The notes beneath the pieces were generated by a model that worked only from the letters and a program-made list of their open reading frames with translations, ran no database searches and was not told the origin of the DNA. A DNA stretch of 44,712 bases from the sequence record PQ295795, one strand, 5' to 3'. This document shows positions 2,691-43,873 of the stretch, piece after piece (position 1 is the first letter of the stretch; each line of letters begins with the position of its first letter). The DNA is from Escherichia phage vB_Eco_Lzu_P1. Both the position numbers and the translations under genes were made by a program.

Positions 2691-2841
2691 AATCACGCGC
2701 ATGAAAAAGTCGATCGCTATCCGTTGCAACTGCAAACTGCATTTTTCACACCCCATTCAGCAACTCGCATTGGTTGCCTAGTTCAGTGACGACCGCAATC
2801 CGCAACATGCTGCCGTGTATTTTGCAATCCCGGATTTTATG

Positions 2842-3012
2842 CAGTCTCAGACGAGGGGGGCCATTGACCCCCGTCTAGTCTGAAAGACTGGGCTTTGTCC
2901 CGCCTGTCCCGCTCCCCTCCAGGCCGCGTCATCTGTGGGCGGGACGGGGTGCTGTCCCGCTTTGTCCCGCCTCCTGTTTGTCCCGCTTTTTGTCCCGCTT
3001 ACTTTATGCAGT
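2842..3012. repeat. Non-coding hairpin plus GTCCCGC iteron element, copy A
   Basis: 2842-2911 identical to 30662-30731 (70 bp); imperfect hairpin AGACGAGGGGGG-ccattga-CCCCCGTCT; at least six direct TGTCCCGC units plus one inverted; ends with TTTATGCAG as in copy B. Confidence 0.85.
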
Positions 3013-3104
3013 TTTATTGCATAACTATGCATTATATTCACACTACACGGCAACCAATGTGACCAGATAAAAACGCTCAAAATGGAAACCAATGCGCGCA
3101 AAAT

Positions 3105-5369
3105 TTAATCGTTCAGGTCGTCATCGGTCGCCGAAAGCGTGATGGGGATATCCGATTTGATGACTAAATTCGACGACCCATATATGGCCCCGGTGTGCGG
3201 ATCTGTATAGAAACCGATCACGCCGCGCTCAACCATATCGTCGATTGCCTTCGTCGAAGTGCCCCCCTTCGCGAGTCCTGCCTGGCGGACTATTGCCGAT
3301 TTACTGAAACCAGTATGGTCCGGGTTATCTTCCATCAGTTTTTCCAGGGCCGCGTAAAGTACCTTTTCTTTTTCGGTGCGCGGTCCGGCGGTGTTCTCAT
3401 CCTTAACTGCGGCTTTTCCTGCGGCCTTCGCCTGTTCTATAGCGAACGGTGCCAGGGCGACCGGTACGAGGTATAAAGTCTCGTCGCGCGGGGTGGACGC
3501 AATTGGTTTGACGTCCCAACCAGCAACTACGTCACCGAAGTCTGGCCCGGTGCTGGTGGACTGGTGCGACGCGAACGCTTCTGACTTGCGGAGATCTACC
3601 GCCACCTTGCACTTGAGCAGGACGAAGCCACGCGGCGCTTGCTTGATGCCGTTACGTGACTTTTCGTGATACAGGTTAAGTTGTCCCGGCTGGTTGTCGT
3701 CCGGCTGTTCCAGGAAGAAAGCTGAATCGACAGCGCCATGCAGTGCGCCGGATCCGCGTGGGGTTCTGCTGCCGTTTGCACCCTTCGCCGGGTGGTGGAT
3801 GACGCCCGCACTGCCACCTGTGTTTTCCGCAATGGCCTTCAGCGCTTTGACCACTTCACCCATATCGCTGGCGTTGTTCTCGTCAAACGGTTTAGCATCG
3901 GCGGACCGCAGCGCAACAGTCTGGTTGAGTGAGTCGAACGCCACCAGGCCAACAGGTTCGCCGTTAGCGGTGCGGTTGATAAAGCTGATAACTTCGCGCA
4001 AACCGGACTTGCTGGTGATATCCCAGCCGCGAGACTGCAGGTCGATAATGTGCAGCTTGTCCAGGTCGTGCTCGTATTTAATCTGCAATGCTTCTTTGCG
4101 CTGGTTGGAGGCTTCGCCGCCTTCCGCGTCGAAATAGAAGCAATGAGACTGGACGACCTTCGCACCGCCAAACGGGATACCCGCGGCAACCGCGCCCATT
4201 TGGCCCAGCACATAGAAAGACTTACCGATATTCGACTCACCAGCCATATACCAGGTTGATTTAAAGTTAATCAACCCCTCGATTATCGGGTCGTGCTTGC
4301 TGAACAGTGCGACCGGCTCGTTATCCAGATCCGCATCGGTGCACACGCCGTATTCTTCGCCGTCGCCAACCGCATCAACAATATGATCATATAAGGATTC
4401 TACTTCCTCGTCGTCCAGACCTGGCAGGATGGCGGCGATTTGCTTACGTGACATGTTGTGCGGCTCGACGTTCAGGTGGTCCGGTATCCCGATAAGACGT
4501 AGCGCCAGGTGCTGGTGTCTATTTAGCTCAGAGCAACACTCGTTGCCGGTGTGCATACACTTGAAACGGATCTCGCCATCCTTGACCATGATAGCCGTCG
4601 ACCCTTCGCCGCTGTGCAGATGTTCGTTCGGGCACGGCACTTCATAACCGCGACCGGAAGATAACTCCTCGAATCCTGCCTGGAAGCACCAGTCCAGAAT
4701 GCCGTCAGCCACTGCGTCGTCGCCCTGGGTAAGCTCACGGCGTACTTCCTCTTTCTCCACTCCCAGCTTGTCAGCCAGGCGAAGCAGACGACGCACACTG
4801 GCGCGCTTGCCGTAGTGACACTTAATAACAGACTGCTGGTGTGGTAGGTACATAAGACGGTTTGTGTCTTTCGTGCAGTCGTCGAAGTCCACATCAGACA
4901 GGCCCAGTTGGTCTAACAGCGCGTACTGGACGCGGCCCAGGTCTTCCGCCGGTACTGGTTTATCTGTGAGCACAAGGAAACGGGCGCAACGCGTGCCGCC
5001 TTTCAGCGGGTGGCGGTCGCCGGTGGTTGTGTGGAATACGTGCTCCAGCCCCGCGTCGATAAAAGCCTTACGGCAGCGGCGTAGGGTGCGAGTGTCGGTG
5101 CGGTCAATATCAAAGAACAGGATCGAGCGGTCCACCGCACTGGTCTTGCGGCGTAGGCCGTCACTGGTATATGCCACGATGCCATCGGCCTTACGCTTGC
5201 GGCGCGCATACTCGGCTTTATCTTCCGTCTTGTTGATATGCACCGAGGAGATTTCTTTCGCGTCATTGATAAATTCGAAAAATTCATCGGTGGTCATCTG
5301 GAAGTTTTCCGCCCTGGCTTTTTCGCCTTTTTTAGCGGGTCGTGTTACCGCGAATTTAATTAAGCTCAT
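3105..5369 (-). CDS. DNA primase-helicase (N-terminal primase-polymerase-like domain, RecA/DnaB-like ATPase with Walker A GESNIGKS)
   Basis: 754-aa ORF; Walker A GESNIGKS, cysteine/histidine cluster CPNEHLH...CMHTGNECC, acidic FFDIDRTD motif typical of primase-polymerase domains. Confidence 0.7.
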   Translation of the reverse strand: MSLIKFAVTRPAKKGEKARAENFQMTTDEFFEFINDAKEISSVHINKTEDKAEYARRKRKADGIVAYTSDGLRRKTSAVDRSILFFDIDRTDTRTLRRCRKAFIDAGLEHVFHTTTGDRHPLKGGTRCARFLVLTDKPVPAEDLGRVQYALLDQLGLSDVDFDDCTKDTNRLMYLPHQQSVIKCHYGKRASVRRLLRLADKLGVEKEEVRRELTQGDDAVADGILDWCFQAGFEELSSGRGYEVPCPNEHLHSGEGSTAIMVKDGEIRFKCMHTGNECCSELNRHQHLALRLIGIPDHLNVEPHNMSRKQIAAILPGLDDEEVESLYDHIVDAVGDGEEYGVCTDADLDNEPVALFSKHDPIIEGLINFKSTWYMAGESNIGKSFYVLGQMGAVAAGIPFGGAKVVQSHCFYFDAEGGEASNQRKEALQIKYEHDLDKLHIIDLQSRGWDITSKSGLREVISFINRTANGEPVGLVAFDSLNQTVALRSADAKPFDENNASDMGEVVKALKAIAENTGGSAGVIHHPAKGANGSRTPRGSGALHGAVDSAFFLEQPDDNQPGQLNLYHEKSRNGIKQAPRGFVLLKCKVAVDLRKSEAFASHQSTSTGPDFGDVVAGWDVKPIASTPRDETLYLVPVALAPFAIEQAKAAGKAAVKDENTAGPRTEKEKVLYAALEKLMEDNPDHTGFSKSAIVRQAGLAKGGTSTKAIDDMVERGVIGFYTDPHTGAIYGSSNLVIKSDIPITLSATDDDLND

Positions 5370-5379
5370 TGCCGTTGCC

Positions 5380-5709
5380 TTACTTCGAAGTTTTATTATT
5401 GCGTACCCAGGAGCGCACGGTGCTCTGATTAATTCCTGTCAACTCAGCGATCATTGCCCAGGATTTGCCCTCGGCGCGCAAACGGATAACCTGTTTTTTG
5501 TATTCTTCCATTTCGTCATTGTGCTTTTGCAGCTTGCTTGCTGCCGTGCCGTTGAGTAATTCCAGCTTCGCGGTAAGCTCCTTCTCAGCACGCGATAATC
5601 TGGACACTTCAAATAACAGAGTATCCACCGCATTTGTGTAATACCAGGATTTACCCGCTTCGCCGCGGATTGCATTAGATAACACTTCAATTGCTTCTTT
5701 GATATTCAT
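5380..5709 (-). CDS. Helix-turn-helix DNA-binding protein (putative transcription regulator)
   Basis: C-terminal GKSWAMIAELTGINQSTVRSWVRN is a classic HTH; first gene of the minus-strand block next to the divergent promoter region. Confidence 0.55.
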   Translation of the reverse strand: MNIKEAIEVLSNAIRGEAGKSWYYTNAVDTLLFEVSRLSRAEKELTAKLELLNGTAASKLQKHNDEMEEYKKQVIRLRAEGKSWAMIAELTGINQSTVRSWVRNNKTSK

Positions 5710-5740
5710 AATTCAGTCTCCTGTTGGCTAATGACCAACG

Positions 5741-5769
5741 AAACTACACCCAAAACTGCACGGTGTCAA
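5741..5769 (-). promoter_or_regulatory. Sigma70-like promoter for the minus-strand block
   Basis: Minus strand: TTGACA - 17 nt - TAGTTT, about 30 nt upstream of the RBS of the 5709 gene. Confidence 0.45.
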
Positions 5770-15406: not shown

Positions 15407-15435
15407 TTGCATAATCATATTGGTTGCATTATATT
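15407..15435 (+). promoter_or_regulatory. Sigma70-like promoter formed by two direct ATTGGTTGCA motif copies
   Basis: TTGCAT - 17 nt - TATATT; motif copies at 15402-15411 and 15417-15428. Confidence 0.55.
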
Positions 15436-15482
15436 GAGGGTGTCCGGTTTGGACGCCCTTTTTAATACCTGGAGACAACACG

Positions 15483-15941
15483 ATGAAAATTTTACAAGAA
15501 GAGAAAAATTACTGGGCCGCGCAATGCCTCGAAGCCCGCGAGCAAACGGCCAACGCGAAACAATCGGCCGAAATCTTCCGGTCAGGTTATGAAACGGAAG
15601 AAAAGCGTCGCATGGAGTTAGAGGAGCGCTTCGAACTGCTATTCGAATTGATGGGGATTATGCAACGCACCGGATACACCACCAGCGTTGCACTAAACCG
15701 CATCACTGCCGATAGTTTGCGTGAGCACTGTAAACGTGCGGAGGAGTACGTGCGACCGAAGGGCCGCCAGTCTAAGATTGACCGGAAAGACCTGGTGCTG
15801 GTTGCGTGGCGAGGGAACGGGTCTTACTACTCCGACTGCCGACCACTCGGCACCGAGGAATCAAAGCGCGTGCAACGCGTTCTAAACAGTAATAAGAAAA
15901 TTGCCCTGTACGCGATAGATCCAGATCATGCAGAAGAGTGA
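15483..15941 (+). CDS. Hypothetical protein (152 aa)
   Basis: ORF track; GGAGA RBS. Confidence 0.5.
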   Translation: MKILQEEKNYWAAQCLEAREQTANAKQSAEIFRSGYETEEKRRMELEERFELLFELMGIMQRTGYTTSVALNRITADSLREHCKRAEEYVRPKGRQSKIDRKDLVLVAWRGNGSYYSDCRPLGTEESKRVQRVLNSNKKIALYAIDPDHAEE

Positions 15942-16413
15942 GCAAAAAGATAGCTGGCGCACGCCGCCAGCTTTATTTAAACCGCTGCGCCGGAAGTACC
16001 GATTCCGTTATGACATGGCGGCGAGCGACACCAACCACCTGCTACCGCGTTACTTCACGGCAGAGCACAGCGCGCTTGAGGTGGACTGGTCAGAGTTGAA
16101 AGGGTGGAAGTGGTGCAATCCGCCGTATTCCGATCCGCTGCCGTGGGTCGAGTGCGCAGCGCACGGACGCAGGACTGTCATGCTGCTGAATCAGGACACG
16201 TCGACGAAGTGGGCGAGGCTGGCCCGGAAGACTGCAAACCTGATAATTCTTCTGGACTGGCGGATCCGATTCATCCATGCTGTGACCGGTGAAGTCGGGC
16301 CGAGCAATAACAAGTGCCAGCAATTGATAATCTTTGACGAAGCGCCGCCCATCGGCAGCGCACAAATTGAAATAATGAGCGAGAGTGAGTTACATGAATA
16401 TCTTAATCGTTGA
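15928..16413 (+). CDS. Phage-type DNA N6-adenine methyltransferase
   Basis: WCNPPYS (NPPY catalytic motif) and N-terminal WRTPP; size and layout typical of small phage Dam-like enzymes. Confidence 0.7.
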   Translation: MQKSEQKDSWRTPPALFKPLRRKYRFRYDMAASDTNHLLPRYFTAEHSALEVDWSELKGWKWCNPPYSDPLPWVECAAHGRRTVMLLNQDTSTKWARLARKTANLIILLDWRIRFIHAVTGEVGPSNNKCQQLIIFDEAPPIGSAQIEIMSESELHEYLNR

Positions 16414-16618
16414 CCGCGACCCCGCGGTCGTAGACCAAATGCAAAAAGACTATAACATCGACCCACGCCGCGATCGTGTGGTGCGCGCGTCTCGCCCCGA
16501 ATACATCCTGGGCCTTGACCTCACCGGTTGGCTTGTCATGACCCGACGTTGTCATTTCGTGTGCAACTCTTACACCGCGCGTAGCGCCCGAGCCACCCTT
16601 ATTGAGAGCCTAAAATGA
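16394..16618 (+). CDS. Hypothetical protein (74 aa)
   Basis: ORF track 16385..16618; second ATG chosen. Confidence 0.4.
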   Translation: MNILIVDRDPAVVDQMQKDYNIDPRRDRVVRASRPEYILGLDLTGWLVMTRRCHFVCNSYTARSARATLIESLK

Positions 16619-17085
16619 AATTACTGATTTGTGATCTGGATGGCGTTATTAATGGTTCAAGTGATGCGCGTGCCGACCTGGTGCCGGGCATAAAAACTAA
16701 ATCCACCTTTTGGGCGAAGTGGCACAAGGCGCACGTCCGCGAAGACCTTAACATGGATATGCTGCCGTTATTGCGCATGTATAAAGAGCAAGGCTTCGAG
16801 ATCGCGTACCTGACAAACCGGCAGCGAGAATGTTGGGACACCACCGCCGAGCAATTGGAGGTCTTCCCGGTAGGCCGGTTATTCATGCGCCACATGCTGG
16901 ACGACACCCCGCCGCCAGAGTTTAAGGCGTGCGCCGTGTTCAAAATGGTCTGCTACGCGGACGTGTCTGAACTGGTCATCATTGAAGATTGCGAGAAGAA
17001 CATCGCGGCAATTCGTCGGGCGTGTGGTGATTTGGTCCCGAAAATTTACGCAATAAACGTTGCAAAATTCACTTGCAACCAATAG
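16615..17085 (+). CDS. HAD-superfamily phosphatase-like protein
   Basis: N-terminal LLICDLDGV (HAD motif I DxDG), downstream YLTNR (motif II). Confidence 0.5.
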   Translation: MKLLICDLDGVINGSSDARADLVPGIKTKSTFWAKWHKAHVREDLNMDMLPLLRMYKEQGFEIAYLTNRQRECWDTTAEQLEVFPVGRLFMRHMLDDTPPPEFKACAVFKMVCYADVSELVIIEDCEKNIAAIRRACGDLVPKIYAINVAKFTCNQ

Positions 17086-17101
17086 TTGGTTGCAGTATAT
17101 T
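17073..17101 (+). promoter_or_regulatory. Sigma70-like promoter overlapping a perfect palindrome TGCAACCAA-tag-TTGGTTGCA
   Basis: TTGCAA - 17 nt - TATATT; palindrome at 17074-17094. Confidence 0.55.
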
Positions 17102-35740: not shown

Positions 35741-36445
35741 TTACTCGTCGTCGCCCATTTTAGCGATGATATCCCCTGCCTGTTTCGTCAAGTCAGTGAT
35801 ACCGAAGCTATGGCCCATAGTGATTTTTGACTTCACATCTTCGACAACCTGCGTCGGTTTGCTAGGAGCGCCGCCTGCTGGCGTGCCAGCCAGGACGGAT
35901 GCGAAATCGGCGTTATTACGGAACTCTTTTTCAAGCTCTTCCATAGTCAGCGCGGACGGTTTGCCATCCTGCAAGACACGCACTTTTAAGCTGCCGTCTT
36001 CGCCGTCTTCCAGCGTGAGGCGGTCCATAACGTGGCGTTGCATGATTCCGGCATTCTTACCGAACAGCTTCGACGCCAGATCTTTGGCAGCGCTGCCGAT
36101 GGTTAGGTCGTGGATCTGCTTGCGGTAGGCTTCGATTTTCCCCGATGTGTCTGCTTCGTGTTTCGCAAACTTATCTTTCCAGGACTTGTCGATCGCTTCG
36201 AGGTCGCCGTTTTTGCGCGCGGCGGCTTCCTCTTTCTCTTTCGCAAGGCGCTCAGCTTCGGCGCGACGTTCGGCTTCTGCTTTCTTCTCGCTAACCAGCT
36301 TCGCGTTGTTGTCTTTCAGACCCTTGATCTCCGCCTGTACTTCTTCGGCGGTCATGAACGTTGATTTGTACCCGTCACCATCGGCGACAAAAAGCGCCTT
36401 CATACCTTCCAGCAACGCGTCATATTCTGCTTTAGTAAGTTTCAT
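35741..36445 (-). CDS. Scaffolding protein
   Basis: 234 aa, charged coiled-coil-like (AEAERRAEAERLAKEKEEAAARK), immediately upstream of major capsid; ATG 36445 with CAGGGGGA RBS. Confidence 0.6.
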   Translation of the reverse strand: MKLTKAEYDALLEGMKALFVADGDGYKSTFMTAEEVQAEIKGLKDNNAKLVSEKKAEAERRAEAERLAKEKEEAAARKNGDLEAIDKSWKDKFAKHEADTSGKIEAYRKQIHDLTIGSAAKDLASKLFGKNAGIMQRHVMDRLTLEDGEDGSLKVRVLQDGKPSALTMEELEKEFRNNADFASVLAGTPAGGAPSKPTQVVEDVKSKITMGHSFGITDLTKQAGDIIAKMGDDE

Positions 36446-36499
36446 GCTATCCCCCTGGGATTGTGGCAAAGCGGGCCACCCGCTTGACTTCACGCCTTA

Positions 36500-36527
36500 A
36501 TATTATCAGCGATAAAAATAATCGCAA
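36500..36527 (-). promoter_or_regulatory. Sigma70-like promoter for scaffold/capsid genes
   Basis: Minus strand TTGCGA - 16 nt - TAATAT. Confidence 0.4.
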
Positions 36528-36534
36528 AATTCGC

Positions 36535-36563
36535 TTGCATTGCAGACGTTGGTCGCATTATAT
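36535..36563 (+). promoter_or_regulatory. Sigma70-like promoter for the plus-strand 254-aa gene
   Basis: TTGCAT - 17 nt - TTATAT followed by TATATTGGTTGCACACCAA, the same 19-mer as upstream of the 2626 gene. Confidence 0.5.
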
Positions 36564-36593
36564 TGGTTGCACACCAACAACGAGGACACAAAA

Positions 36594-37358
36594 ATGAGAC
36601 TGACAAAAGGCATTAAAAATCAGATCCTAGCTAACATCCTTCGCGACCACGAAATCGCAACCGAAGCCAAACAAATCATGATGGACTCTCGCGACCTGGC
36701 GTACGCGATCACGCTGGACTGTATGCCGGACGGCATTCGCACGTTCGCAGCGCTCCGCGAGCATATCAAGGCAATCCGCGATGACCAGTCGCAGATGTAC
36801 GGCGTCAGCGTATACACCAACAAGGCGACGTATAGTTATAACACCGACCGCCCGAAGGGTATCGGCCGCGTTTACGACGCCACCTTTGAAATCAACGCAG
36901 GCGGCAATGTTCGCACCTTGTCCTTGAGCGGTGACGGTCGCCAATACCGCGTACATCGCGGATACTGGGAAGAGAAATATATGAATAAGCTCTCGCCTGA
37001 TCTCGGCGATATCGTTCCGGGGTTCGAGACAGTTATGCTCGCGTCAGTGTGCGAAGTGGACGAGGAAGGGAAAGCGCTGCCGATATATCTCCCACGCGGT
37101 CGCGTAGACTACCCGGCGGACCATGACTTCTGTAAGCGCCTGGACCGCAACGACAAGGCACGTCGCGAGTTGCGTGCGAAGTATGACGCGTTCAAACTCA
37201 CCGTTACCGGTGTGCTGGACCTGCACAATACTGACAAGAAGCTGATTAAGGCATGGCCTGAAGTTGAGCAATTCATACCATACCAGGACAAGCCAAAATC
37301 CACGGCGGTGGCGCTGGATGTGAAAACTCTCAACGAGATTTGCGGTATTCCGCGCTAA
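36594..37358 (+). CDS. Hypothetical 254-aa protein in an autonomous promoter-gene-terminator cassette inside the head gene block
   Basis: ATG at 36594 with GAGGA RBS; own promoter and terminator; opposite orientation to flanking structural genes. Confidence 0.6.
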   Translation: MRLTKGIKNQILANILRDHEIATEAKQIMMDSRDLAYAITLDCMPDGIRTFAALREHIKAIRDDQSQMYGVSVYTNKATYSYNTDRPKGIGRVYDATFEINAGGNVRTLSLSGDGRQYRVHRGYWEEKYMNKLSPDLGDIVPGFETVMLASVCEVDEEGKALPIYLPRGRVDYPADHDFCKRLDRNDKARRELRAKYDAFKLTVTGVLDLHNTDKKLIKAWPEVEQFIPYQDKPKSTAVALDVKTLNEICGIPR

Positions 37359-37360
37359 TG

Positions 37361-37392
37361 AAAAGGGGCCATTACGGCCCCTTAATTATTTG
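37361..37392. terminator. Bidirectional intrinsic terminator
   Basis: AAAA-GGGGCC-attac-GGCCCC-TTAATTATTT; overlaps the last codons of the o-spanin gene. Confidence 0.6.
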
Positions 37393-37602
37393 CTGCAACT
37401 CCAACACCTGCGCCCTTAGCTTCGCGCCGCATTCCATATTTTTCACGTCAATCATCAAATCTTCGTCGGGGTCCGCAGACGGGTTATCGAACTTGCACGG
37501 CGGTCGCAGTGCCGACTCCGTTAGCGGCATCAACGGCACGCTGCTTGATCCGCACGCGCTCAGCGTCAAAACTACAATCAGGGCGGTTAGGGCGCGTAAC
37601 AT
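37372..37602 (-). CDS. Outer-membrane spanin component (lipoprotein, Rz1-like)
   Basis: MLRALTALIVVLTLSA-C lipobox, proline-rich mature part; AAGAGG RBS; overlaps the i-spanin gene in another frame. Confidence 0.55.
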   Translation of the reverse strand: MLRALTALIVVLTLSACGSSSVPLMPLTESALRPPCKFDNPSADPDEDLMIDVKNMECGAKLRAQVLELQQIIKGP

Positions 37603-37813
37603 ATTTAACAACCTCTTTTGTGATAGTCCGGTATTCCACGTCGCGGGCTTGTTCTGCCTGCACGGAGCGCTCAATTACTTTAGTTTGCTGCCGTTGGGCT
37701 TCGGCTTGCGCTTCTTGCGCCGCCTCAGCCACTACGCCAGCGCGATAGGAGTCCCCAAGCCAGAATCCTACCGCCAGACCTATAACCAGTCCAATAGCCG
37801 CATACTTAATCAC
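37484..37813 (-). CDS. Inner-membrane spanin component (Rz-like); start codon uncertain (GTG 37813 or TTG 37843)
   Basis: N-terminal TM helix IKYAAIGLVIGLAVGFWLG followed by Ala/Gln/Glu-rich coiled coil; o-spanin gene begins inside it in a different frame. Confidence 0.5.
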   Translation of the reverse strand: MIKYAAIGLVIGLAVGFWLGDSYRAGVVAEAAQEAQAEAQRQQTKVIERSVQAEQARDVEYRTITKEVVKYVTRPNRPDCSFDAERVRIKQRAVDAANGVGTATAVQVR

Positions 37814-38909
37814 GCCATAACCCCCGGTTTTTAAGCTGCGCAATAGTCATTAGTTCGCCTGAATCGGTGAACATCTTCGGAACTTTCACGCCGCGCATAA
37901 TCTGGTCGGCGCGTTGCACTCCGTATAATTCTTCCAGGATATGGCGCGGCTGGCGCTGCACCCATGAGAAGAAATCAGTCTGCGCGTCGACCTGCTCACT
38001 CAGCAATCGGCCCGCGTCAGCCTTCAGTGCCGGACGCTTACCACTGGGCCAATCTTCCATACCTTTAACCTTCCACGTCTCCGTCGACCGGCAACAATAA
38101 TGCAGCTTGCCCGGACCAGCGCCATATTGTGACCCAGCCACCACTTTCCCGCCGCGCTTTCCTTTGGTGTCGGGAGTAACATCAACCGGATAAAACAGGC
38201 GATCGCGTAGCTGGCACATGGGAGAAGTATGAGTGTCCAATGTAGATAACCATTGGCGACCTTCGAGAATATCGTCATTAGCTTTTACCATTAATTCGCG
38301 GGCTGTCGCCGCATAGTGGTTGACTGCCGACTTAACAACGCTTGAGATAGCTTGCGCACTACGACCGCCGAGCGAGCGCCTCACGTCCGCTATAATTTCC
38401 ATAGTCGGCTTGCCCTGGATGAATCCGGCGCGCACCTGATTGCCGATCTGCGTTCTGGTCCATTCTGAAAGTGAATCGGGCCATTGCATCAGGGTATTGC
38501 CCTGAAACGGGTTTTTCATTGCCGTCGCTGCGATCTGCGCACCGGTCACTACGCCAACCACCTCGACCGCAGGTACAGCGACCACCGGCTGGATCGCTGC
38601 CGTTAATGTGTCGGTGAGATAATCAGCCTCCGTGTCGGCAAACTCCTGAAGGCTTTCAGCTAACGCCTTAAACTCGGTGCGCAGTTCCGTTTTGACGGTC
38701 TTGTCCAGTTGCGTCAACAGTGTGGTAAGTGCCTTGTTACTCATGGTCTTTTTGCCATCAAGTAACTCGGTCAGCTTACCCTGTAACGTGGGCCGGAACT
38801 TCTCCCACATAGCCAACACCCTTCGCGCCTGGTCATTACTCAGGCGCTGGGTGAAGATGTGTCGGCGGATCATTCGATCCGCCATATATTGATTAATTGT
38901 CTTCGCCAT
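37806..38909 (-). CDS. Head morphogenesis protein (Mu F / SPP1 gp7-like minor head protein)
   Basis: 367 aa directly downstream of portal; central QWLSTLDTHTSPMCQLRDRLFYPVD segment typical of this family. Confidence 0.7.
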   Translation of the reverse strand: MAKTINQYMADRMIRRHIFTQRLSNDQARRVLAMWEKFRPTLQGKLTELLDGKKTMSNKALTTLLTQLDKTVKTELRTEFKALAESLQEFADTEADYLTDTLTAAIQPVVAVPAVEVVGVVTGAQIAATAMKNPFQGNTLMQWPDSLSEWTRTQIGNQVRAGFIQGKPTMEIIADVRRSLGGRSAQAISSVVKSAVNHYAATARELMVKANDDILEGRQWLSTLDTHTSPMCQLRDRLFYPVDVTPDTKGKRGGKVVAGSQYGAGPGKLHYCCRSTETWKVKGMEDWPSGKRPALKADAGRLLSEQVDAQTDFFSWVQRQPRHILEELYGVQRADQIMRGVKVPKMFTDSGELMTIAQLKNRGLWRD

Positions 38910-43796: not shown

Positions 43797-43830
43797 ATTG
43801 GTTGCAGTATGGCGTCTATGTTGGTTGCAA
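43797..43830 (+). promoter_or_regulatory. Pair of ATTGGTTGCA motifs (regulatory site; promoter orientation ambiguous)
   Basis: Motif at 43797-43806 and 43821-43830; plus-strand TTGATT - 17 nt - TATGTT, minus-strand TTGACT - 18 nt - CATACT. Confidence 0.35.
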
Positions 43831-43848
43831 GTCAAGCAATAAAAAGCC

Positions 43849-43873
43849 CGGTATTATCCGGGCTTGATTGTTT
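43849..43873 (-). terminator. Intrinsic terminator ending the lysis operon
   Basis: Minus strand AAGCCCGG-ataata-CCGGGCTT followed by TTTATTG. Confidence 0.65.

Follow-up and report, generated by a model that had tools for sequence, protein, structure and literature searches.

The plus-strand gene between the head scaffold gene and the spanin genes of Escherichia phage vB_Eco_Lzu_P1 is nmad5, and the locus is the nmad5 cassette of the Dhillonviruses, which carries a conserved, dispensable accessory gene. The window, that is the whole stretch of 44,712 nt that was analysed (sequence record PQ295795), is the genome of a Dhillonvirus (HK578-like siphophage), and members of this genus are often isolated for phage therapy. 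An earlier note based on the letters of the DNA had spoken of an unknown protein. This was not borne out: the product is a full-length member of the Pfam family Nmad5, and the same gene has already been studied experimentally. Gene, family and genetic phenotype are thus already published, and nmad5 offers a published way into the question of how Dhillonviruses are sensed by the host defence Tmn. What we add here is evidence against the label "modification enzyme", a promoter family and a corrected numbering of the escape site.

The nmad5 cassette in Dhillonviruses

The elements of the locus have the following positions in the window:

35741-36445, minus strand: head scaffold gene, real start at ATG 36445
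36446-36593, no strand assigned: divergent intergenic region from the scaffold start to the nmad5 start, 148 bp, near-invariant in relatives
36535-36564, plus strand: predicted nmad5 promoter with -35 TTGCAT (36535-36540), 18-nt spacer and -10 TATATT (36559-36564)
36549-36557 (one mismatch) and 36563-36571 (exact), plus strand: the two copies of the 9-mer TTGGTTGCA at nmad5
36582-36586, plus strand: GAGGA ribosome-binding site, 7 nt 5' of the nmad5 ATG
36594-37358, plus strand: nmad5 coding sequence (Pfam PF18757), ATG 36594, TAA 37356-37358, 254 aa
37230-37262, plus strand: codons T213-E223 with the motif T-x-x-K-L-x-x-A-W-P-E, K216 codon at 37239-37241
37363-37383, no strand assigned: predicted GC-rich terminator hairpin AAGGGGCC-ATTAC-GGCCCCTT at the 13 bp that separate the stops of the converging genes nmad5 and o-spanin
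37372-37843, minus strand: Rz/Rz1-like spanins, converging on nmad5

The ORF map confirmed that a plus-strand gene is located amid minus-strand scaffold and spanin/head genes; the head-morphogenesis, portal and terminase genes near nmad5 are all on the minus strand as well. The existence of a self-contained, oppositely oriented cassette is also supported, with the promoter and the terminator being predicted. The dN/dS values of 0.09-0.18 in comparisons with four relatives show that nmad5 is a real gene under purifying selection. Its product evolves at 3-5 times the rate of the scaffold and capsid proteins.

A region of approximately 1.1 kb around nmad5 is matched by 153 phage records, with Salmonella phage Kenya-K19 (96.9%), SSL-2009a and EP23 at the top, as compared to 158 records with the capsid gene, which corresponds to about 97% of the Dhillonvirus-type records. 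The gene also occupies this position in a relative with a Nmad5 that is only 45% identical. Thus, nmad5 is fixed at its position across the genus. This bears on the earlier description of the cassette as moron-like, of which one part stands, namely an apparent promoter and terminator of its own inside an operon of other function, and the other, sporadic presence, does not. Classical morons (lambda bor/lom, cor of T1/N15-like phages) are sporadic and typically expressed from the prophage. Similarly to them, nmad5 seems to have its own promoter and terminator within a late operon, and the cor-like gene of the window has the TTGGTTGCA element upstream, as nmad5 does. However, unlike them, nmad5 is fixed throughout a virulent genus and is also present in the 45%-identical relative.

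The variable part of the locus is an extra gene slot beside nmad5, inside the same transcription unit. Its content was as follows:

Slot empty: window (36572-36586), Kenya-K19, Ioannina and SM_S22
Slot with a 104-109-aa gene of PHROG 24635: SSL-2009a and SM_A8
Slot with a 170-aa gene of PHROG 3007, upstream of nmad5: EP23; sub-threshold match to the central domain of DNA polymerase III beta

In the 45%-identical relative, the 170-aa gene of PHROG 3007 (84% identical) is located downstream of nmad5. The slot genes of the compared loci have the coordinates 4186-4515 (L001), 2695-3207 (L002), 2146-2460 (L010) and 5251-5763 (L011). The insertions are exactly between CACCAACA and the GAGGA ribosome-binding site and are bounded by repeated ribosome-binding-site sequence; the junction GAGGA-ACACAAAAATG is also present 5' of nmad5 in SSL-2009a and EP23. 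The label "DNA polymerase III beta subunit" for Nmad5 of EP23 was rejected, because it belongs to the neighbour gene EP23p08.

In Ioannina, nmad5 (L009, 2501-3262) is saturated in dS and its product shows 64% amino acid identity, while the scaffold and capsid genes of this phage have dS values of approximately 0.8 and 90% amino acid identity. A diverged nmad5 between near-identical promoter and terminator sequences suggests allele replacement by recombination within the cassette borders.

The Nmad5 family and escape from Tmn

The nmad5 product matches PF18757 ("nucleotide modification associated domain 5") with E=5.4e-61 and 206.7 bits at profile positions 1-206 of 206; the curated cut-off of this profile is 27 bits, and full-length profile coverage was required for membership. 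The protein also belongs to PHROG 1965, a group of unknown function. The family name reportedly goes back to Iyer et al. 2013. Viral matches to Nmad5 were only other Nmad5 members, and the family is phage-restricted. Sequence searches gave no match in the PDB (single sequence and profile), NCBIfam and PADLOC. The AlphaFold model of the 254-aa protein has a pLDDT of 90.7, and from a fold absent from the PDB nothing positive about function follows.

Conservation was analysed using 49 diverse members from an exhaustive HMMER search (99 clusters, E<=0.001). Only L217, W221 and N247 are invariant among them, and G104, P222, L246 and G251 are nearly so. All parts of the family signature are present in the window protein: the N-terminal R-L-T-x-x-I, G104, L217, W221-P222-E223, L246-N247 and G251-x-P253. 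The 49-member alignment agrees with the earlier note in that it reveals no catalytic motif. Residue K216 adjoins the invariant L217 in T-x-x-K-L-x-x-A-W-P-E; of the 49 members, 45 were inspected at this position, with 30 having K, 10 having Q and five having A.

This lysine is the residue at which Tmn-escape mutants were found. Escape mutants of the Dhillonviruses SM_A8 and SM_S22 obtained on E. coli expressing Tmn carry the nmad5 exchanges K216E and K296E, respectively (Yamashita et al. 2025, PMC11846954). Reverting K-to-E restored Tmn sensitivity and introducing K-to-E led to escape, SM_A8 with wild-type nmad5 was Tmn-sensitive, deletion of nmad5 was tolerated and the phage was still sensitive, and cloning of the gene failed due to apparent toxicity (PMC11846954). 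A genetic interaction between nmad5 and Tmn is supported by that work. The anti-defence or exclusion role which had been considered typical of such a cassette is unsupported for the wild-type protein, because wild-type phages are Tmn-sensitive and the deletion is neutral (PMC11846954).

The Nmad5 of the window is 87% identical to that of SM_A8 and SM_S22 and contains K216. In both phages nmad5 (CDS7 and CDS6, respectively) is located, as in the window, between scaffold and spanins, with the same predicted promoter and terminator; SM_A8 differs by an extra 104-aa gene between promoter and nmad5, which the window does not have. The annotated SM_S22 ORF (334 aa; L022, PP627283, 5005-6009) is over-extended: upstream, it crosses the conserved promoter and overlaps the scaffold gene. 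M81 of this ORF corresponds to M1 of the window protein, and the N-terminal difference of 80 residues is an annotation artefact. The true SM_S22 protein has 254 aa and, therefore, the published K296E is K216E.

Tmn is fired by a contact with the early protein RIIB of phage T2, one residue change in RIIB uncouples this contact and abolishes the activation, and rIIB nonsense mutants escape (PMC13001434), which makes RIIB a straightforward trigger. Nmad5 would resemble RIIB as a phage early protein in which a single substitution abolishes Tmn activation. However, loss of RIIB gives escape while loss of Nmad5 does not, and the sequences are unrelated. Thus, the literature argues against nmad5 as the Tmn trigger: its deletion leaves the phage sensitive (PMC11846954), unlike rIIB nonsense mutations (PMC13001434).

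In other phages, Nmad5 genes were found in the following contexts:

HK542 and Stx1/Stx2 phages: first gene after N
Vibrio phage Athena1: adjoining the replication gene O
Roseophage R26L: between helicase and exonuclease
Metagenomic phage: between small early-type genes and lysis genes

The lambdoid homologues (HK542 gp33 and those of the Stx phages) belong to PF18757 with E=3e-72 and are likewise accessory and of unknown function. They differ from the window protein in having 207 aa and in being encoded in the pL early operon of temperate phages, not in an autonomous divergent cassette. The Yuavirus relatives (Sphaerotilus phage SN1_019, Pseudomonas phage M6, Bordetella phage MW2) belong to the same family and have the C-terminal motifs T-x-x-K-L-x-x-A-W-P-E ... 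L-N-x-x-C-G-L-P in common with the window protein, but they comprise about 186 aa instead of 254 and lack the window residues ~111-170. Their genes sit in a thymidine hypermodification cluster, of which nothing is annotated in the near-identical SSL-2009a.

Predicted promoter and terminator, and the TTGGTTGCA element

The proposal that nmad5 has its own sigma70-like promoter is credible in view of the conservation of the intergenic region, the fourfold recurrence of the predicted promoter and its counterpart in the 45%-identical relative. The 148-bp region is near-invariant in five Dhillonviruses (window, SSL-2009a, EP23, SM_A8 and Ioannina), and Ioannina keeps it although its Nmad5 is 64% identical and its nmad5 synonymous sites are saturated. 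The pattern TTGCA(T/A)-N17/18-TATATT has four sites in the window:

15407-15435, plus strand
17073-17101, plus strand
36535-36564, plus strand (nmad5)
2682-2654, minus strand

By our own arithmetic, approximately 0.02 exact occurrences are expected. The pattern actually scanned and shuffled was the looser TTGCAN-N16-18-TANNNT, with six matches versus a shuffle mean of 2.7, and the claim of promoter enrichment therefore depends on the stricter pattern. The metagenomic relative with the 45%-identical Nmad5 contains TTGCAA-N17-TATAGT 5' of nmad5 in the same gene order. A generic sigma-70 scan of the window gave no call at the nmad5 promoter, because its -35 matches TTGACA at just three of six positions. 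A literature search for Dhillonvirus transcriptome data found none. Judging from their sequences, promoter and terminator are presumably active, and judging from the promoter type only, nmad5 may be expressed early.

The intergenic region probably also harbours a minus-strand promoter from which the scaffold and capsid genes are transcribed. Within it we noticed the inverted repeat GCGAT-N7-ATCGC at 36509-36525 and a perfect TATAAT on the minus strand (complement of 36558-36563). Both are candidate parts of a promoter that would restart scaffold/capsid transcription past the terminator.

The terminator had been described as strong and bidirectional. Indeed, the hairpin is stable on both strands (-21.7 kcal/mol folded with its context; z=-4.2 on the plus and -3.4 on the minus strand) and is invariant in five phages. 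Bidirectionality is plausible, but weaker than claimed. The terminator scan gave a call only on the plus strand, where the tail is rich in T; on the minus strand, a stem of 6 bp leaves TTTTCATT as the T-run, and only with this reading of the stem is the tail adequate.

Twelve exact copies of TTGGTTGCA are present in the window:

1940, 2647, 2678, 5898, 15403, 15420, 17074, 17086, 20456, 36563, 43798, 43821

SSL-2009a also contains 12 copies, at syntenic places, while 0.48 are expected in shuffles of SSL-2009a. At nmad5, the pair of copies overlaps the spacer, the -10 element and the likely transcription start. The copies are mostly paired and intergenic; one palindrome, TGCAACCAA-n3-TTGGTTGCA, is located at 17074-17094. 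The element provides the -35-like TTGCA of four near-identical promoters, and it also precedes the helicase-primase operon and the cor-like gene. It could act as a promoter element specific to the phage, or some regulator may use it as an operator. Predicted promoters marked by TTGGTTGCA also precede the operon with the anti-Tmn homologue, a methyltransferase and a PNK-like protein, as well as other non-structural operons. The occurrence of this promoter type at nmad5 and at the anti-Tmn homologue suggests that both Tmn-related loci are co-regulated. At 43798-43870 (plus strand), a terminator-like hairpin, GCCCGG-TATTAT-CCGGGC, is located no more than 30 nt downstream of a TTGGTTGCA pair, with no obvious ORF in between. 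This element could correspond to a small RNA or a regulatory site.

Possible roles of Nmad5, and the operon of the anti-Tmn homologue

In our opinion the chances are about even that the 29-kDa Nmad5 is a non-catalytic early binding or adaptor protein and not a base-modifying enzyme. Host sigma-70 RNA polymerase would transcribe nmad5 from its own promoter, a putative member of the TTGGTTGCA-marked family, independently of the minus-strand head and lysis genes, and transcription would end at the hairpin common to the converging spanin genes. The protein would adopt a distinct fold composed of a helical bundle and a small beta-sheet, and its conserved C-terminal surface (T213, K216, L217, W221-P222-E223, N247, G251-x-P253) would bind a partner, either DNA or a protein of the phage or the host. 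As a speculative guess, prompted only by the neighbours of the gene in a few other phages, the partner might be the early replication or nucleotide-supply apparatus. With the charge on this surface reversed in K216E, the complex would be remodelled and the Tmn sensor would stay silent. A remodelled complex would explain escape by missense mutation but not by deletion; indeed, a K216E phenotype without a null counterpart is most simply read as that of an altered-interaction allele. Alternatively, K216E could act otherwise, by altered expression or stability or by direct inhibition of Tmn. Further, R2, N14, T213, E223, T237 and N247 are conserved polar residues that could make up a small active or ligand-binding site, so that catalysis is conceivable.

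A wider conjecture, to which we assign a low probability, is that Nmad5 is a widespread, phage-only, non-enzymatic early family with a fold unseen in solved structures, and that its W-P-E/L-N surface docks on an early replication-associated (possibly membrane-linked) complex watched by sensors of the Tmn type. If true, the family would generally modulate the way in which an infection is "seen" by defence sensors, and its name would be a misnomer derived from one lineage.

The partner might also be sought in the host only, and it is tempting to connect the toxicity of the gene upon cloning (PMC11846954) with a host-takeover toxin or an inhibitor of a conserved host protein, the link to Tmn then being indirect, via cell physiology. 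We consider this rather unlikely. The accessory slots, for example first after N in lambdoid phages, and the evolution 3-5 times faster than that of the neighbours are in line with it. However, no plating defect was reported for the deletion, and the explanation overlaps with that of an adaptor protein, differing only in that the partner is from the host and not from the phage.

The overlap of two TTGGTTGCA copies with the -10 element and the likely start of nmad5 raises the question whether Nmad5 is a transcription or DNA-binding regulator that recognises TTGGTTGCA, its own promoter included, and tunes early expression. K216E would then lead to escape because either the true Tmn trigger or the anti-Tmn homologue, whose gene is preceded by the same promoter type, is expressed differently. 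The missense-not-null phenotype suits altered specificity, the toxicity of the cloned gene (PMC11846954) is compatible with it, and the sometimes palindromic arrangement of TTGGTTGCA (17074-17094) fits a dimeric binder. Nevertheless, such a regulator is clearly improbable: the searches revealed neither a helix-turn-helix nor any other DNA-binding fold in the protein, which is near neutral (pI 8.2; family median 7.0), the lambdoid, Vibrio and Pseudomonas loci that we fetched are nearly devoid of TTGGTTGCA (one copy, in Vibrio phage 1.075.O), and the deletion is viable (PMC11846954).

Very doubtful is the notion that Nmad5 is a DNA or nucleotide modification enzyme, that Tmn senses the installed modification and that K216E alters it. 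Although nmad5 was termed a "DNA modification enzyme" in the 2025 paper (PMC11846954), this label relies on the family name alone. The name does point to modification, the Nmad5 gene of the Yuavirus and Vojvodinavirus group is located between aGPT-Pplase1 and dU hydroxymethylase, and two DNA methyltransferase genes are present elsewhere in the window. Indeed, genes for dU hydroxymethylase, 5-hmdU DNA kinase and aGPT-Pplase are present in SN1 and MW2, and in this lineage the association of Nmad5 with thymidine hypermodification genes is real. It is, however, the only lineage in which Nmad5 is found among modification genes; they are absent from most contexts of the family, and in the near-identical SSL-2009a none of the three is annotated, only two methyltransferases. 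Further, gp51-gp54 sufficed to reconstitute the 5-NedU pathway of phage M6 in vitro, with no need for the Nmad5 homologue (PMC8989533), restriction-modification systems are effective against Dhillonviruses (PMC8594841), and deletion of nmad5 leaves Tmn sensitivity unchanged (PMC11846954). The 49 members have no conserved catalytic constellation, and no enzyme fold was recognised in Nmad5. With no catalytic signature or known fold, mostly unrelated contexts and a pathway that works without Nmad5, binding partners and not chemistry should be looked for.

That Nmad5 is a head-assembly or structural protein is hardly credible: only its location between scaffold and head-morphogenesis genes speaks for it, while it is encoded on the opposite strand behind what seems to be its own promoter, has homologues in early regions and is dispensable, the deletion mutants being viable (PMC11846954). 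The earlier note had named homology to a structural or assembly protein and essentiality as points to be checked; no such homology was found, and the viable deletion speaks against essentiality (PMC11846954).

The operon with the anti-Tmn homologue at 15483-17085 (plus strand) comprises the following genes:

15483-15941, plus strand: anti-Tmn homologue, 152 aa
15928-16413, plus strand: DNA methyltransferase
same operon, plus strand: gene for a 77-aa protein
16615-17085, plus strand: polynucleotide-kinase/HAD-like protein

The 152-aa protein is 73% identical to SM_S22 CDS0035, a gene that SM_A8 lacks at the syntenic position; from this we infer that CDS0035 is the published anti-Tmn gene (ORF35). 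The PHROG label of the protein is "DNA ligase", which looks wrong because Pfam finds nothing in it. Its gene is the first one behind the TTGGTTGCA-type promoter at 15407-15435, and this promoter type is common to both Tmn-related loci. The operon may represent an anti-defence or nucleic-acid-repair module. Its leader (15436-15482), which is 3' of the 15407 promoter and 5' of ATG 15483, contains a hairpin with a T-run directly behind it, GGGTGTCC-GGTT-TGGACGCCC-TTTTT. This hairpin is kept in SM_S22 and looks like an attenuator or a terminator.
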